IMG/VR virus record: IMGVR_UViG_3300013102_000002
Location: 110,511-174,510 of that record
Length of the DNA: 64,000 nucleotides
From: a virus
Strand: one strand, 5' to 3'
Part shown: positions 2,161 to 54,706 of the stretch, in pieces
How the letters are laid out: each line of letters starts with the position of its first letter
Numbering within the stretch: position 1 is the first letter of the stretch
Position numbers and translations under genes: made by a program
The notes under the pieces: generated by a model
Seen by the model: only the letters and a program-made list of their open reading frames with translations
Databases searched by the model: none
Told to the model about the DNA's origin: nothing

Positions 2161-2538
2161 ATGGTGAAAATAATGAAAATTGAAGTGCCGCTATATAAGG
2201 AATCAGAAAAGTATATCAAAGAAACTTTTTCACGATACACCGAGAGTAGGGAGTTGCCATTTTCATTGACACTTGACAATTGCATTATCCATATGTATCC
2301 GCACAGTGATACATACGATGATAATGGCGAATTGAATGGTTATGTTGATGCCTTGTTTTTTAGAGCACATATATACGATGTGAAAAATGGTGTAGTTTAT
2401 AAATCTGAAATTCACGATGCAATTTTTACTGAAGCAAACTGTCAAATTAAATATTTTAAAGACATGAGTACAATGGTTCATTTTGAGAGACCAATTAATA
2501 TAATTATGGGCAGAGCAATTCACGTAATGAGTGTTTGA
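2161..2538 (+). CDS. hypothetical protein
   Basis: Co-oriented 125-aa ORF. Confidence 0.65.
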   Translation: MVKIMKIEVPLYKESEKYIKETFSRYTESRELPFSLTLDNCIIHMYPHSDTYDDNGELNGYVDALFFRAHIYDVKNGVVYKSEIHDAIFTEANCQIKYFKDMSTMVHFERPINIIMGRAIHVMSV

Positions 2539-2585
2539 TAATGGTTAATAAAATAAGGAATTGATTAGGAAAGGAGGGCTGCTTA

Positions 2586-2774
2586 ATGGAACTGAATGGA
2601 ATATATGTAGTTTTATTTAAACATCCAGATGATAATACAAGTTCTTGTCATCATTACAGGTTTGAAGGCAGGTGTGAGAACTTTGTTACAATAGGTACTT
2701 GTGCTTTTTCAAATGACAAAAAAGAAATGCTATTAGTTAACTATAGAGATATAGTTCAGATGAGATTAAAATAA
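2586..2774 (+). CDS. hypothetical protein
   Basis: AAGGAGG SD; lies between two degenerate repeat sites. Confidence 0.65.
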   Translation: MELNGIYVVLFKHPDDNTSSCHHYRFEGRCENFVTIGTCAFSNDKKEMLLVNYRDIVQMRLK

Positions 2775-2822
2775 CGCCTTACCAAATGGATCTTTTAAAT
2801 AGAAAGGATGAAATAAATACAC

Positions 2823-3104
2823 ATGAGTGAAACTAAAGTAGTTAATAAATATCACAAATTACCATATGACATCTATTGCGGCAGAGGATCTAAATGGGGA
2901 AACCCATTTGTTATAGGCAAGGACGGAGATAGAGATGAAGTGTGTGATAAATACGAAGAGTGGTTTCCTAGTCAAGAACACTTGGTCAAAGACCTGCATG
3001 AGTTAAAAGGGAAAACTTTGTGCTGCTTCTGTAAGCCTAAGAGGTGTCATGTTGATTTTTTAGCAAAAAGGGCAGATGAAACTAGAAAGGAAAGTGCCAA
3101 TTGA
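2823..3104 (+). CDS. DUF4326 family protein
   Basis: YCGRGSKWGNPF...DRDEVCDKY...LKGKTLCCFCKPKRCH signature. Confidence 0.85.
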   Translation: MSETKVVNKYHKLPYDIYCGRGSKWGNPFVIGKDGDRDEVCDKYEEWFPSQEHLVKDLHELKGKTLCCFCKPKRCHVDFLAKRADETRKESAN

Positions 3105-3283
3105 AAGAACTTATGGCTTACGTAAACATGATTAAAGATGTTCTGGATCGTGAATATGGGAAAGAAGTTATCTTCTATAGTGAAGGAGAGTGGTATTCAA
3201 GAGACCACTCTAGAAATATTACTGTTGAAGAACTAAGAGAATACCTGCTACAGCAAACATATAAAGGTGAGGATGCTTATTGA
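3101..3283 (+). CDS. hypothetical protein
   Basis: ORF overlapping the upstream stop. Confidence 0.55.
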   Translation: MKELMAYVNMIKDVLDREYGKEVIFYSEGEWYSRDHSRNITVEELREYLLQQTYKGEDAY

Positions 3284-3326
3284 GTCTTAATGAATTCATC
3301 ATTTCACGGAGAAAGGGAGAGGTAAC

Positions 3327-3563
3327 ATGAACGAATTTGAAGAATTAAAAGAGTATGAAGAGGATTATTTAAAAAGTAATTGGTCTCGTATGGACTTATT
3401 TTTAGCAGAAAAAATTAAAATGCAAAGTAGTGAGTTGGAGAACTTGAGGAAGTTTTATAGTTATTTTCGTGAATTGTATGGCGAAGGTCTGGAGGTAGCA
3501 AATTGGCACAAAAACGGAGATCTGGAACCATTTGATAACCTCTTTGATTCCGCCGAAGAGTGA
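3327..3563 (+). CDS. hypothetical protein
   Basis: SD present; bounded by repeat sites 3290 and 3563. Confidence 0.7.
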   Translation: MNEFEELKEYEEDYLKSNWSRMDLFLAEKIKMQSSELENLRKFYSYFRELYGEGLEVANWHKNGDLEPFDNLFDSAEE

Positions 3564-3597
3564 TAAAATAAAACTTTTATGAGGAGATGAGAAAAAT

Positions 3598-3909
3598 ATG
3601 AATATTAAACAAGTAGAAAAAATTAATGATTATTCAGCATGTACCGGAGACTTGCTTCTAACTAAAGATTCTAATGGGACAGAGCAATATTTATTATTTT
3701 GCGAATCTGATGCAAGTATAGTCTTTGACGAAGAAAGATTCAGCAAATTTTATTTTGTAAATATTAAATCAGGGTATATGTTTGAACAAGAATTGCATAG
3801 CGACGATGAAATTAAAGTGGGAACTAAGATTAATGGGTGTGGAGCAATTATTAAGATCGTACCCAGTGATGATATCGAAGTGTTATTGCACGAGTCTAAA
3901 TATAATTAA
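3598..3909 (+). CDS. hypothetical protein, paralog of 5829-6110
   Basis: GAGGAG SD; shares the TGDLL...EQYLLF.E pattern. Confidence 0.7.
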   Translation: MNIKQVEKINDYSACTGDLLLTKDSNGTEQYLLFCESDASIVFDEERFSKFYFVNIKSGYMFEQELHSDDEIKVGTKINGCGAIIKIVPSDDIEVLLHESKYN

Positions 3910-3942
3910 ATTTTGATTAATAGTTGAGAGGAGAAGGAGTTA

Positions 3943-4206
3943 TTGAAATTAATCAACTATCTTTTAGAAACTGACAAAGAAATTGAAACATATGAAATGG
4001 CTGCTAGTTTTCATGAGATGGAAGTTGAAGATTACATTAAAACTGGATATTGCCCTTCGGCATTTACTGTTTTTATAAATACAGTCTACAGTAAACCACT
4101 TGTTGCCGATAAAAAGCACAAAGATTCGTGTAAATATTCCAATCTAGAGGATCAAGATAAATGTAATGAATGTTGGAGCAGAAATATTCTTTTTGTTACT
4201 AAGTAA
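3943..4206 (+). CDS. hypothetical Cys-containing protein
   Basis: AAGGAG SD, TTG start. Confidence 0.6.
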   Translation: MKLINYLLETDKEIETYEMAASFHEMEVEDYIKTGYCPSAFTVFINTVYSKPLVADKKHKDSCKYSNLEDQDKCNECWSRNILFVTK

Positions 4207-35729: not shown

Positions 35730-36044
35730 ATGAAACCACTTTACATGAGTAGACATTTTAAATATTACCACAAGAACAGATTTCATATTGAAGGCGTATC
35801 ACGCAAAACTAAAAAGCATCTTCAGAAAGCAATCAAAAAAGGCTACTTGCCAACTGTAACAGAGCAACGCTGGTTTCAATTGCCTGAATGCAAATGGTGT
35901 AATGGTGGAGGGTATTATCGAGAGCACGAATATGACACTGGTTATACTTGCCCTGATTGTGTTGGCACTGGCAAAGATGGATGGTTTGCGAAAGATGGGA
36001 AAATGTATGACAGAGAAACAAGATTAGAAGTTAAAGAATTCTAA
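35730..36044 (+). CDS. DnaJ-type CxxCxGxG zinc-finger protein
   Basis: CKWCNGGG...CPDCVGTG. Confidence 0.7.
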   Translation: MKPLYMSRHFKYYHKNRFHIEGVSRKTKKHLQKAIKKGYLPTVTEQRWFQLPECKWCNGGGYYREHEYDTGYTCPDCVGTGKDGWFAKDGKMYDRETRLEVKEF

Positions 36045-36684: not shown

Positions 36685-38332
36685 ATGAAATGGAAACAAA
36701 AAACACCTGTCATTCCATTTGAATCATATGACAATACGTATTCTAAACTTGCGAAACTTAACGGAATCACAAACATTGATCAATTCCTGAATCCACTGTC
36801 TAATGTAATTTGTGATTCTTATCTGCTTAAAAATATTGATGCATTAGCAAGTCGAATCATTCTTGCAATTCGGAATCGTGAGCCTATTACGATTACTGGC
36901 GACCCTGATTAGTTAGGATTATGACGGCGTAACTTCGTTGGTGACAATGTATAAGTATCTACTTAATTTCACTGACGAAGTATATTATGTGTGCAATGAA
37001 CGATCCGAAGGTCATTCGATTAATAACTTAGTCGAAACGATTCCAGGATCAACAAAAGTTCTGATTGCAGTAGACAGTTCATCAAACGATGTTGAGACCA
37101 TGCGACTACTATCATCAAGAGGAATTGACTGCTTAATCATTGACCATCATACAGTTACAGTAGATAACCCATATGCAATTTTAGTAAACCCGCAGCAAGC
37201 CAATGACCAATATCCAAACAAAAATGCTTGCGGCGGTTTACTCGTCTTCAAGGTTTGCCAAGTAATTGATGATTACATGAATACATATTATTCAAACAAG
37301 CTCGATGATCTTCCTGGATTTTCTCTAATGGCTGATATGATGTCAATGTTGGAATTAGAGAACAGATATTACGCAAAACAGTCACTGAAGAATTTACATC
37401 ACGCAGGACTCAAAGCATTGTTTCAAGCAATGAATTATGATCTAACAAACCTATCTGCGACAGACTTTCTATACGGGGTAAGCCCTGCTGTAACAGCTGC
37501 TACACGAGCAGATAATATCCAGTTAGCAATTGACTTTCTGATGTGTATAGATGACTCAGGCGACATCAAGGGGCTTGCTAAAGAGTTGGTTAAGGCCAAT
37601 GAGAAGCGTAAAGAAGTTCAGGCTGAGGCACTCAACGCATTGAAACCGTTTGTGGATGAGCGAGATAAAGTAGTAATTGTCTTCGATCCGACACTTGGGA
37701 AAGGGATGAATGGCCTCGTAGCGCAAGAATTGTCACGGACATTCAATAAACCAGCAATTGTTCTTGGAGAAGGTGACGACAAAGATACCTACGCAGGAAG
37801 TTATCGTGGATTAGAGGACTTTTCAATGCTTGAATTACTTAATGGTTGCGAGAGTGTAATTTACACAGGAGGACATCCGTCTGCTGGAGGGGTGCAACTA
37901 CCCAAGACCAACTTAGAATTGCTTAGACAAGAACTAAATAAAAAATTGTCTAATTTTGAAGCCGACGATTCGTTGTACTATGATCTAGAATTCAACTTGT
38001 CAGATGTCAATGAGAATCTAGTTAATTATCTGAATGAGTTTTACCGGATTACAGGCAACAAATTCAAGCAAGGCAAATTTCTCATCAAGGGATTATTCGT
38101 CTCAGATAAGAAGCTCATGGGTAAATCTGCTAATACAGTTAAGGTTGATTGCGATAAGATTCAATTGATGAAGTTTAAAACTGATGAGCAATACTTTAAC
38201 TCAGTCCCGGTATTCTCTGAAATTGAAGCCATCGGCTCACTCAACATCAACGTTTGGAAAGTTTATAAGCCCAAGTTTAAAGTCACTAAAACACTGCAAT
38301 TATTCATTGATGATTACCGGGAAAATATTTAA
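36685..38332 (+). CDS. recJ: RecJ-like DHH single-stranded DNA exonuclease (SPbeta YorK-like), split by a 10-nt insert at 36910-36919
   Basis: ORF1 ends ...ITGDPD*; the ORF2 frame reads DYDGVTS..., AVDSS, IIDHH, NP, ADMM, GSYR, GGH. Removing 10 nt gives a 545-aa intact protein. Confidence 0.85.
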
Positions 38333-40154: not shown

Positions 40155-41240
40155 TTGAGTAGTTTGATTGTTGAAGTTTGTAGGGTTGATAGCATTGAGA
40201 AGCATCCGAACGCCGATAAACTATCCATCATTAGTGTAAAGGGTTGGAATTGTATCGTTGGCCTGGATCAATACAAAGAAGGAGATTTAGTTGTTTTCAT
40301 TCCACCAGATTCAATTATTCCTGAAGATTTGATTGAAAAGTATGAACTTACTTATCTCAAGAATGGTGGAAGAGTTGGCAGCACAAAGCTTCGTGGTTAC
40401 ATTTCACAGGGACTAATTCTTGCTCCACCACAAGGAAAGAAATATAAAGTTGGTGATGATGTAGCCAAAGAAATGAACATCAAGAAATGGGAGCCACCAA
40501 CACCGTCTTACCAACAAAATCAATCTGGTAAGAAGAGTACGCCCCGTAATATTAATCCTTATTTTGATAAATATAATGATTTGGAGAATATTAAAAACTT
40601 CAACAACGTATTCAAAGATGGTGACAAAGTTTATATCAGCGAAAAACTCCACGGAACAAGTTGGAGAGCTGGTAATCATCCGGTAGTTAACAAAGGCATA
40701 AAAAGAAAAATAGTTAATTTCTTTAAAAAACTGATTGGTAAATATGATGGATATGAATTCGTTTATGGAAGTCGAAATGTTCAATTGTCTTATACATCGA
40801 AGAAGGGATACTACGGTGATGATGTTTACGGAAATATTGCTAAGAAATACAACATGAAAAACATCATCCCAAAAGACTACGGAGTATATGGTGAAGTTAT
40901 TGGCAGAGGAATTCAGGATCTGGAGTATGGACTGGATGAGCATGATCTTTACATTTATGATATTAAACTAAATGGCAAGTATCTTCCTTATGAAGATATG
41001 AAAGCATTCTGTGATGAGCGTAATCTTAAAGTTGTTCCACTTTTATACATAGGTGAATGGAATTCAGAATTAATCAATACATATACGAACGGTAAATCGA
41101 TCTTGGCTCCAAAACAGATTCGTGAGGGTTGCGTAATTAAAGATTACAATGAGACGAATGATCAAAGGCTTGGCCGTAAAGTATTGAAAAGTATTTCGTT
41201 TGATTACTTGACACGAAAAAATGCTACGGAATTCCATTAA
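40155..41240 (+). CDS. RNA ligase, DRB0094/Rnl5 family
   Basis: N-terminal HPNADKL OB module, LRG.ISQGL, motif I EKLHGTS, YGEVIG, IYDI, REGCV, VLKSIS. Confidence 0.9.
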   Translation: MSSLIVEVCRVDSIEKHPNADKLSIISVKGWNCIVGLDQYKEGDLVVFIPPDSIIPEDLIEKYELTYLKNGGRVGSTKLRGYISQGLILAPPQGKKYKVGDDVAKEMNIKKWEPPTPSYQQNQSGKKSTPRNINPYFDKYNDLENIKNFNNVFKDGDKVYISEKLHGTSWRAGNHPVVNKGIKRKIVNFFKKLIGKYDGYEFVYGSRNVQLSYTSKKGYYGDDVYGNIAKKYNMKNIIPKDYGVYGEVIGRGIQDLEYGLDEHDLYIYDIKLNGKYLPYEDMKAFCDERNLKVVPLLYIGEWNSELINTYTNGKSILAPKQIREGCVIKDYNETNDQRLGRKVLKSISFDYLTRKNATEFH

Positions 41241-53287: not shown

Positions 53288-53312
53288 GGCGGTGGTTAAT
53301 CCATCGCCTTTT
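53288..53312 (+). terminator. probable terminator after dut
   Basis: GGCGGTGG-TTAAT-CCATCGCC-TTTT. Confidence 0.65.
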
Positions 53313-53339
53313 AACTTACAAATTAAGGGAGGAAATAAA

Positions 53340-54203
53340 TTGAATAAACTAGATGAACAATACATTCAGCTTTGCAAAGACATTCTTGAAAATGGAGTAA
53401 GAAAAGAGGATAGAACTGGGACGGGAACACTTTCAGTGTTTGGACGGGAAATCAGAATTAATCTTCAGGAAGGATTCCCTTTGCTTACAACCAAGAAAAT
53501 TCATCTGAAATCAGTGATTCATGAACTGCTATGGTTTTTAAAGGGAGAAACCAATATAAAATACCTTAAAGATAATGGGGTTACAATATGGGATGCTTGG
53601 GCGGATAGACATGGAAACCTGGGTCCAGTGTATGGATCTCAGTGGGTTAATTGGGAATCAAAATATGAAGATACTGATTGGGGATATGATGGAGAGGATG
53701 AATATTCGTACTCCATAGTATCATCAGAATATACAAATCAGATTCAGGATGTTGTCAATTCAATCAAAAACAATCCAGATTCCCGTAGACACCTTGTTTC
53801 GGCTTGGAATGTTGGAGAAATTAAAAACATGAAATTACCGCCGTGTCACTATGCCTTTCAATTTTATGTAGCAAATAATAAACTATCTTGCAAATTTAAT
53901 ATGCGCAGCACAGATGTATTCTTGGGATTACCATTCAATATTGCAAGTTACGCGCTATTAACTATGATGATTGCTCAAGTATGTGATTTAGAGCTTGGGG
54001 ATTTAATTTATTCAGGTGGAGATGTACACATTTACACTAATCACCTCGATCAAGTCAACCTTCAATTAACAAGAGAACCAAAAGAACTGCCTAAGATGTT
54101 TATTAATTCAAATATTAAAGATATATTTTCATTTAGGTATGAAGATTTTATCATTGATGGCTATGATCCACATCCACCAATCAAGGGAACCGTTGCTATA
54201 TGA
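53340..54203 (+). CDS. thyA: thymidylate synthase
   Basis: DRTGTGT, ELLWFL.G, LGPVYG.QW, PDSRR, LPPCH, GLPFN, HIY.NH; TTG start after GGGAGG. Confidence 0.97.
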
Positions 54204-54706
54204 CCTACCCATTAACAATCATTGTAGCTATGGATAAAAATGGTCTTATTGGTTCTAATAACAAGCTTCCCTGGCACATTTCAGCAGACTTAAATTTCTT
54301 CAAATCAACGACTCAATACAATAATGTAGTTATGGGTAGATCAACGTTTGAATCAATTGGCAAACCACTTCCCAAACGAACAAATATCATCCTAACTTCA
54401 CAAAAAGATTACCCTGTTCCACCTGATGGATATGTTTATGATCATATAGATGATGTATTGGTTCATTCATTTGTCGATGAACTCAGATCGACCTACATTA
54501 TTGGCGGGTCATCAATTTATTCACAATTCCTTCCTCATGTTGAGAATATGATTATTACTCACATTGATGCAGAGTTTGAAGGAGATACTCATTTCCCTGA
54601 ATACGATAAATCAGAATGGGAATGTGTCCATGAAAGATATATTCCCAAAGGTCAAGATACTGATTACAACTTAACAACAACACGTTACCGAAGATTTAAT
54701 AAATAA
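54200..54706 (+). CDS. dfrA: dihydrofolate reductase
   Basis: [41 protein letters not shown]. Confidence 0.95.

Follow-up and report, generated by a model that had tools for sequence, protein, structure and literature searches.

A recJ-like gene in the DNA of the large Paenibacillus phage analysed here is interrupted within its conserved motif I by a stop codon and a 10-nt coding gap, and the best explanation of this gap is probably a programmed 9-10-nt translational bypass by peptidyl-tRNA-Asp. The window, 64 kb in length, is the final part of a 174,510-bp IMG/VR phage genome with direct terminal repeats. The phage has a G+C content of 34% and a single tRNA gene (Met), and TAG terminates 30 of its 142 long ORFs, as an ordinary stop. 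On these grounds reassignment of TAG and a suppressor tRNA were ruled out.

The first segment of recJ (36685..36909, plus strand, 75 codons) has as its last codon the putative take-off GAT (36907-36909). This codon is followed by TAG (36910-36912), and the corresponding ORF1 (36685-36912, plus strand) encodes 75 aa with the C-terminus GDPD. Positions 36898-36928 read GGC GAC CCT GAT TAG TTAG GAT TAT GAC GGC. The coding gap, TAGTTAGGAT (36910..36919, plus strand), contains the 0-frame TAG (36910-36912), a +1-frame TAG (36914-36916) and the putative landing codon GAT (36917-36919). The second segment (36920..38332, plus strand, 470 codons and a stop) restarts at TAT and carries the DHH, DHHA1 and RecJ OB domains; its frame, ORF2, runs from the GAT at 36917, directly after an in-frame TAG, to the stop at 38330-38332. 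An earlier note on this DNA had described an ORF1 ending in GDPD-TAG with an identical GAT 10 nt later that opens 470 codons, as well as GATTA direct repeats 10 bp apart. Both were seen, the former at 36907-36919 and the latter in the window and in every 10-nt form of the gap. Since the third frame is closed by a TGA (36906-36908), stops are present in all three frames and no single +1 or -1 shift joins the halves; we rejected this decoding route as impossible.

Joining the segments at GAT gives 75 + 470 = 545 aa and an uninterrupted motif I, GDPDYDG, as in homologs. The same join had been put forward in the earlier note, and it is borne out by the uninterrupted proteins of Bacillus phage Tsamsa (gp107, 562 aa) and Alicyclobacillus phage KKP_3916 (554 aa), which align FDPD/ADGLTS exactly over the break; the insert is therefore precisely 10 nt. 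The motifs of a RecJ-like DHH exonuclease of the SPbeta YorK type (DxDxDG motif I, DHH and GGH) are present, the first of them complete only once the halves are joined. Pfam matches to ORF2 were each above cut-off (PF01368, DHH; PF02272, DHHA1; PF17768, RecJ_OB), and ORF2 resembles solved bacterial RecJ structures (PDB RecJ 8y30, E 2e-32). The Asp specified by the take-off and landing codons aligns with Asp82 of Thermus thermophilus RecJ, a metal ligand (PMC11193018). A DNA search of cultured phages gave no match, and the closest proteins reach no more than 37% identity.

In IMG/VR, metagenomes and GTDB genomes we found about 40 recJ relatives, carried by Paenibacillus phages and prophages. 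An insert is present at the identical codon in 8 sequences (WIN, which is the window, L030, L037, L031, L033, L036, L168 and L185) and is missing from 34 other homologs. These carriers span the window and its close IMG/VR relatives of one clade (5/5 interrupted), one member of the sister clade and two bacterial chromosomes, and TAG directly follows the take-off GAT in all eight. Such recurrence greatly exceeds what chance would give. The form TAGTTAGGAT is shared by the window, L031 and L033, and L036 has TAGTTAAGAT; the 9-nt forms are TAGCTAGAC in L037 and TAGCCAGGC in L030 and L168. The check proposed earlier asked whether inserts of varying length or sequence are found at this position in homologs, and it came out in favour of recurrence, with lengths of 9 or 10 nt and differing sequences. 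L168 lies within a 6.3-Mb chromosome, L033 is identical to L185 in a 6.0-Mb chromosome, and L031 is probably the same prophage as L169, located in an 8.5-Mb chromosome. On the RecJ tree the carriers form one clade (100/99 support) except L033, which falls inside the sister clade, among members that have no insert. The insert is distributed patchily, since proteins without it that share 83-87% identity with the window ORF2 also exist.

Further carriers were recognized in a collection of 5.8 billion proteins. It holds 18 clusters of ORF1-like proteins (54-83 aa, 77-99% identical to ORF1), all ending in GDPD and some of them from P. polymyxa, P. odorifer and P. spiritus isolates, together with matching ORF2 proteins that are N-terminally truncated. 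One of the latter, P0031, begins ...ILISWDYDG, which implies an additional variant, TAGTTGGGAT. About 12 more carriers are known from proteins alone (P. odorifer, P. spiritus, P. tianjinensis and others), and the encoding DNA of a possible 7-nt variant, P0085, was sought and gave no match. Gene callers split or truncate these genes, such that NCBI and JGI list hypothetical proteins of about 75 aa beside N-terminally truncated DHH proteins. We found no paper on the recJ gap. A pattern scan of IMG/VR for further junctions returned known loci and chance matches only, a matched-codon scan for further bypass-like junctions in the 174-kb genome was too noisy for use, and Pfam revealed no other split genes among five adjacent or overlapping ORF pairs of the phage genome.

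Both halves of the gene are under strong purifying selection. Omega values among carriers, calculated by the Nei-Gojobori method, were 0.02-0.11 for ORF1 and about 0.05-0.085 for ORF2, with dS among carriers from 0.35 to saturation, and all 545 codons are open in every carrier. The six codons directly after the gap (YDGVTS) show synonymous changes only, at 5 of the 6 codons, which indicates that reading in that frame begins no later than TAT. Start-capable codons are not conserved 3' of the gap, and L033 has none for 46 codons. Judged by these patterns in the sequences (low omega, 545 open codons, purely synonymous change in YDGVTS and no conserved start), a pseudogene is excluded.

The insert varies far less than its surroundings. 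Among the four 10-nt carriers 1 of the 10 gap positions varies, as against 39 of the 49 degenerate codons with a conserved amino acid in the flanks (60 codons); if the gap were as free to change as the flanks, so little change would have a probability of about 4e-6 by a binomial estimate. L030 and L168 likewise share an identical 9-nt form despite a dS of about 0.8-1.0. Because synonymous differences abut the gap on both sides, recent transfer alone does not account for its identity, which also reflects constraint. By these comparisons the insert itself is constrained.

We propose that termination and take-off would compete once GAU occupies the P site and UAG the A site. Peptidyl-tRNA-Asp would unpair, the ribosome would slide 9-10 nt, a 13-bp stem-loop then at its leading edge would halt it, and the tRNA would re-pair with GAU or, in relatives, with GAC, or with GGC through a G.U pair. 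Decoding would restart at UAU to give one 545-aa enzyme with the DPDYDG motif intact; the full-length product would be about 62 kDa and the junction peptide ITGDPDYDGVTSLVTMYK. The GAT-to-GAT hop to a 545-aa enzyme was the leading idea of the earlier note, and it is supported as the only reading that fits all the comparative data. Bypass would also be the one model to cover both the 10-nt and the 9-nt forms.

Landing codons differ among the carriers. The matched take-off and landing codons described earlier hold for the four distinct 10-nt carriers (GAT to GAT) and break down in L030 and L168 (GAT to GGC); L037 has GAT to GAC. In 6 of the 8 carriers the landing codon is also the earliest GAY triplet in the gap, whatever the frame, and the first with which tRNA-Asp can pair conventionally. 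In L030 and L168, GGC is the sole landing candidate that preserves the motif, and it pairs with tRNA-Asp only via a central G.U (G-C, G.U and C-G with anticodon GUC). Landing with minimal pairing has reportedly been seen with gene 60 constructs. A +1-frame TAG or TAA lies inside the gap in 4 of the 5 10-nt variants, and C follows UAG in both 9-nt forms. UAG followed by C is the weakest UAG termination context in E. coli.

Two findings go beyond the earlier note, a 3' stem-loop and a possible link to a homing endonuclease. The stem-loop (36932..36981, plus strand) has a 13-bp stem (36932-36944 with 36969-36981) and a 24-nt loop, and it begins 12 nt past the landing codon. All 13 pairs are kept in each of the six carriers of the window's clade. 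Four of the pairs link third codon positions. In L036 G-C has become A-U twice, as a double compensatory change, and three other changes in the stem are one-sided, turning G.U into G-C or A-U. Stem cells were 100% paired, as against 30-59% when the partners were slid, and the covariation score was equalled by 16 of 500 shuffles. Folding of the six clade carriers gave minimum free energies of -13.4 to -23 kcal/mol (z -2.4 to -6.1), compared with -3.8 to -10 kcal/mol (z +1.0 to -1.2) for insert-less kin and L033; the six stem carriers are one clade, so the effects of clade and insert coincide in this comparison. The 34 insert-less sequences keep 3-10 of the 13 pairs, and the recent carrier L033 just 9.

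By its position the stem is a candidate barrier that may halt the ribosome once it has slid to the landing site. Its 5' edge is at +26 when the take-off GAU occupies the P site, where the ribosome cannot reach it; a 10-nt slide would bring this edge to +16, just outside the mRNA entry. For T4 gene 60 a forward slippage barrier has been described at the same position relative to the landed ribosome (bioRxiv 10.1101/2022.08.31.505936).

The small hairpin CCUGA-UUAG-UUAGG (36904..36917, plus strand), noted earlier around the take-off codon and stop, does exist; a functional role for it was not supported, since shuffled sequences fold at least as well (z +0.85) and relatives have not conserved it, its stem being disrupted by CCC in L031 and by A in L036. 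No carrier-specific nascent-peptide signal was detected, and the ORF1 C-terminus, RIILAIRNREPITITGDPD, is close to that of insert-less kin, RIILAIHNHETITISGDPD. A stimulatory nascent peptide is dispensable in some known bypass cases. Counted against bypass were the unmatched GGC landing of L030 and L168, the in-frame 9-nt forms, for which UAG read-through could serve, the insignificant take-off hairpin, the lack of a nascent-peptide signal setting carriers apart, the coincidence of the 3' stem with clade, and the single lineage behind the endonuclease link. Short hops in E. coli are moreover usually of low efficiency, and this too was counted against it.

In L033 a 303-aa ORF is inserted immediately upstream of recJ, which its nearest kin, L032 and L034, do not have. 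It contains two LAGLIDADG motifs (Pfam LAGLIDADG_3, 24.9 bits, cut-off 22.5) and matches PHROG 4645, 'endonuclease', with an E of 1.4e-42. Mismatches between L033 and L034 are 44/216 (20%) over the final 216 nt of ORF1, 9/45 (20%) over the first 45 nt past the gap and 5/255 (2%) over the following 255 nt, which places a recombination breakpoint in L033 about 45 nt 3' of the gap. This fall from 20% to 2% indicates that one tract brought in the endonuclease gene and ORF1 together with the gap and the roughly 45 nt that follow it. Entry as a single tract is the pattern expected of endonuclease-driven co-conversion, and it makes a link between the endonuclease and the gap plausible. A LAGLIDADG gene upstream of recJ was seen in a single lineage, L033/L185. 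The endonuclease link rests on this one lineage, and these phage genomes are generally mosaic. None of the other six carriers has an endonuclease beside recJ; Pfam identified none among the 10 neighbours of the window recJ, and tblastn found no homolog of the L033 endonuclease in the window's whole genome. On the viral contig L184 a degraded homolog, 43% identical to the L033 endonuclease, lies immediately upstream of an unrelated DHH phosphoesterase gene, an arrangement that may point to DHH genes as the targets of this endonuclease lineage. It is probable that the gap came in, and is spreading, within a haplotype linked to the homing endonuclease. By analogy with MobA and gene 60 of T4, it would interrupt the endonuclease target in a conserved motif and might thereby confer self-immunity, and it would persist in lineages that have lost the endonuclease.

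We weighed several alternatives to bypass. The least improbable of them, still an unlikely one, is that ORF1 (75 aa) and a re-initiated ORF2 product assemble non-covalently, like T4 gp39/gp60 and the split NrdA of Aeh1. Cases are known in which a homing endonuclease has split a gene and the parts reassemble (bioRxiv 10.1101/2022.08.31.505936), and a TTG, GTG or ATG lies 7-10 codons past the gap in most carriers. The position of these starts is not conserved, however, and they come without a Shine-Dalgarno sequence. Moreover, the intervening YDGVTS, which includes the third Asp of DPDYDG, is conserved as amino acids despite its synonymous changes and is therefore translated; together with the lack of a conserved start this argues against a separately initiated ORF2. 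We consider it quite unlikely that the UAG is read through, alone in the 9-nt forms and together with a +1 shift or quadruplet decoding at UUA-G in the 10-nt forms, to give D-X-L-D-YDG with 3 added residues. The 9-nt inserts are in frame, C after TAG is a weak termination context, and the in-frame X-L-D of L037 resembles the UUA(G)-GAU reading of the window. The 10-nt forms, however, are ancestral and commonest and would require two rare events, and +1 re-pairing of tRNA-Leu on UAG or UAA is impossible. The 9-nt forms encode differing, unrelated peptides (PG as against LD), and the three residues would separate the equivalents of the metal ligands Asp82 and Asp84. Nor does read-through accord with a normal TAG stop and the absence of a suppressor tRNA.

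The remaining alternatives act on the DNA or the RNA. Slippage between the 5-bp GATTA repeats could delete the 10 nt in a subpopulation, and only those phages would make RecJ; this we regard as very unlikely. Such repeats lie 10 bp apart in all 10-nt forms, and the patchy insert with its insert-less close kin is compatible with repeated precise loss. The 9-nt forms, however, have no usable repeats and the gene is nonetheless under purifying selection, the covarying 3' RNA stem is left unexplained, and because the deletion is irreversible phase variation fails to explain retention over saturated dS. Inactivation of the gene, with the insert left behind by a mobile element or by endonuclease repair, RecJ dispensable and conservation due to recent spread or to recombination with intact copies, is highly improbable. 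The endonuclease linkage, the mosaicism and the insert-less relatives 83-87% identical to the window ORF2 speak for it. Against it, the eight carriers keep 545 open codons at omega 0.02-0.11 with dS up to saturation, and both the insert and the 3' stem are constrained; the recent inactivating insertion considered in the earlier note is contradicted by the same purifying selection on both halves. The other alternative raised there, an assembly error, was ruled out because the same interruption recurs in independent metagenome assemblies, in isolate genomes and in two finished chromosomes. Together with such an artefact, removal of the 9-10 nt at the RNA level, for example by an endonuclease cut and the phage RNA ligase, has an equally slight likelihood. 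Its sole support is an RNA ligase gene (40155-41240) 3 kb downstream of recJ, and against it we know of no such mRNA processing in bacteria or phages. The specific form of this idea, a micro-intron cut from the mRNA by an endonuclease and resealed by the phage RNA ligase, is the most improbable of all; if true, unconventional mRNA splicing of the HAC1/XBP1 type would be seen for the first time in a bacterial virus.

The proposed recJ bypass may be compared with known systems. In the large terminase gene of the Streptomyces phage phiHau3, and likewise in prophages of StrepC.1 and S. catenulae (Smith et al. 2013; PMC10732093), inserts of 10 nt (7 nt in one prophage) that disrupt the frame have been described, with bypass proposed. 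For the 10-nt insert of phiHau3 the junction peptide was detected by mass spectrometry in E. coli; bypass has been demonstrated only in E. coli, with UAA substituted, and a +1-frame stop put in the gap doubled recoding (PMC10732093). By analogy, these terminase inserts are the closest precedent for the recJ gap. Both have a short gap placed exactly between codons that are adjacent in homologs and a slow-to-decode codon in the A site, which is a true stop (UAG) in recJ and the rare UUA in phiHau3. The recJ gap has a natural +1-frame TAG or TAA, whereas the +1-frame stop of phiHau3 was experimental. The two differ in gene, in host phylum (Bacillota for recJ) and in origin. The recJ insert is kept across many diverged phages, whereas that of the terminase is present in only 3 of 100 genes. 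Unlike phiHau3, recJ has a covarying 3' stem and a plausible endonuclease link, and regulation by the host cell cycle is not implied.

In T4 gene 60 a 50-nt bypass is combined with a MobA homing endonuclease cassette (Huang 1988; Bonocora 2011; bioRxiv 10.1101/2022.08.31.505936), and the gap blocks self-cleavage (bioRxiv 10.1101/2022.08.31.505936). Gene 60 and recJ share matched take-off and landing codons (the GGC forms of recJ excepted), a UAG right after take-off, a 3' stem-loop at the leading edge on landing, which in gene 60 is the forward slippage barrier and in recJ a candidate for one, and a gap within a metal-binding motif of a DNA enzyme. Immediately upstream of both (L033/L185 for recJ) there is a free-standing gene for a homing endonuclease, and in both systems some lineages have kept the gap without the endonuclease. 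The recJ gap is shorter (9-10 nt compared with 50 nt), and a nascent-peptide signal, a take-off stem-loop and a mini Shine-Dalgarno, all features of gene 60, are not detectable in recJ. The endonuclease is of the LAGLIDADG type in recJ and of the HNH type in gene 60. There is no sequence homology between recJ and gene 60, which points to an independent origin.

The byp elements of Magnusiomyces capitatus mitochondria are 27-55 nt long, GC-rich and present in many copies per genome (Lang 2014; Nosek 2015). Like byps, the recJ gap would be a mobile, non-coding insert in a conserved gene, bypassed between matched codons; many byps occur per genome, whereas the recJ gap is the only one found in the phage, in which the other adjacent ORF pairs checked were not split genes. 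Short tRNA hops over stop codons have also been observed with E. coli reporters (Weiss et al. 1987; Herr et al. 2004). There, as in the model proposed for recJ, peptidyl-tRNA leaves the mRNA at a stop and pairs again a few nucleotides further on, and minimal pairing can suffice for landing, which bears on the GGC form of recJ. The reporter hops are engineered or adventitious and of low efficiency, whereas the recJ gap is natural and selectively kept.

To our knowledge, natural bypassing is known from very few systems, namely gene 60 of T4 with its homologs, the mitochondrion of one yeast and, tentatively, a Streptomyces phage. The recJ gap would be an independent case, in phages of Bacillota, and would be the smallest bypass gap with strong evolutionary support. 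Its natural variants (10 or 9 nt, landing on GAU, GAC or GGC, with or without the stem) would provide a ready mutational series. The system looks minimal, with a stop codon, a codon for re-pairing and, further downstream, a candidate barrier stem, and it should ease the study of take-off, slide and landing without the elaborate signals of gene 60. Furthermore, the LAGLIDADG link suggests that bypass gaps serving as immunity to homing endonucleases may recur beyond T4.

Another interrupted recJ was found in a draft genome of Paenibacillus sp. Marseille-Q4541 (L187), whose homolog is 58% identical to that of the window. The interruption is around GAT CCC TGA C TAC GAT on the reverse strand; in this one draft genome, the only one in which it was seen, the break lies one codon 5' of the position of the window's 10-nt gap. 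A single additional T generates CCC-TGA-C, a textbook example of a sequence prone to +1 frameshifting. A +1 shift at this site regains SDPDYDG, and the two parts of the gene, 75 and 470 codons in length, carry no other damage. The site in a further related sequence, L061, is identical, and L187 and L061 are probably the same genome.

Two homologs were seen as proteins. The P0031 protein (P. polymyxa) has the N-terminus ...ILISWDYDG, which implies, as deduced from the protein, a form of the gap, TAGTTGGGAT, that lacks the second stop. The P0085 protein (44% identity), from a 174,670-bp contig, begins MAMWIISYDG; again from the protein, one may speculate that this start reflects a gap of 7 nt, for which TAT would be the take-off codon.

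Among other genes of the window, an RNA ligase (PF09414; 40155-41240) is encoded 3 kb downstream of recJ, and is relevant here solely because it touches on the rival explanation that the gap would be removed by RNA splicing. It has an OB/tRNA-binding domain at its N-terminus, and its role is probably tRNA repair. The 104-aa product of 35730-36044, which carries the zinc-ribbon motif CxxC...CxxC, gives a weak Anti-TRAP-like match and is kept 5' of recJ in several relatives. The thymidylate synthase and dihydrofolate reductase genes (53292-54706) overlap by 4 nt, which is ordinary ATGA-type coupling.

In one relative only (L035), a 224-aa ORF (3180-3854) is inserted between two conserved genes 3' of recJ and may encode a free-standing homing endonuclease. 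The viral contig L184 carries a decayed relative (43% identity) of the LAGLIDADG endonuclease encoded directly upstream of recJ in the gap carrier L033. This degraded gene lies directly 5' of an unrelated DHH phosphoesterase gene (289 aa; both within 2501-4145), which suggests that the L033-type endonuclease lineage homes to DHH-family genes.
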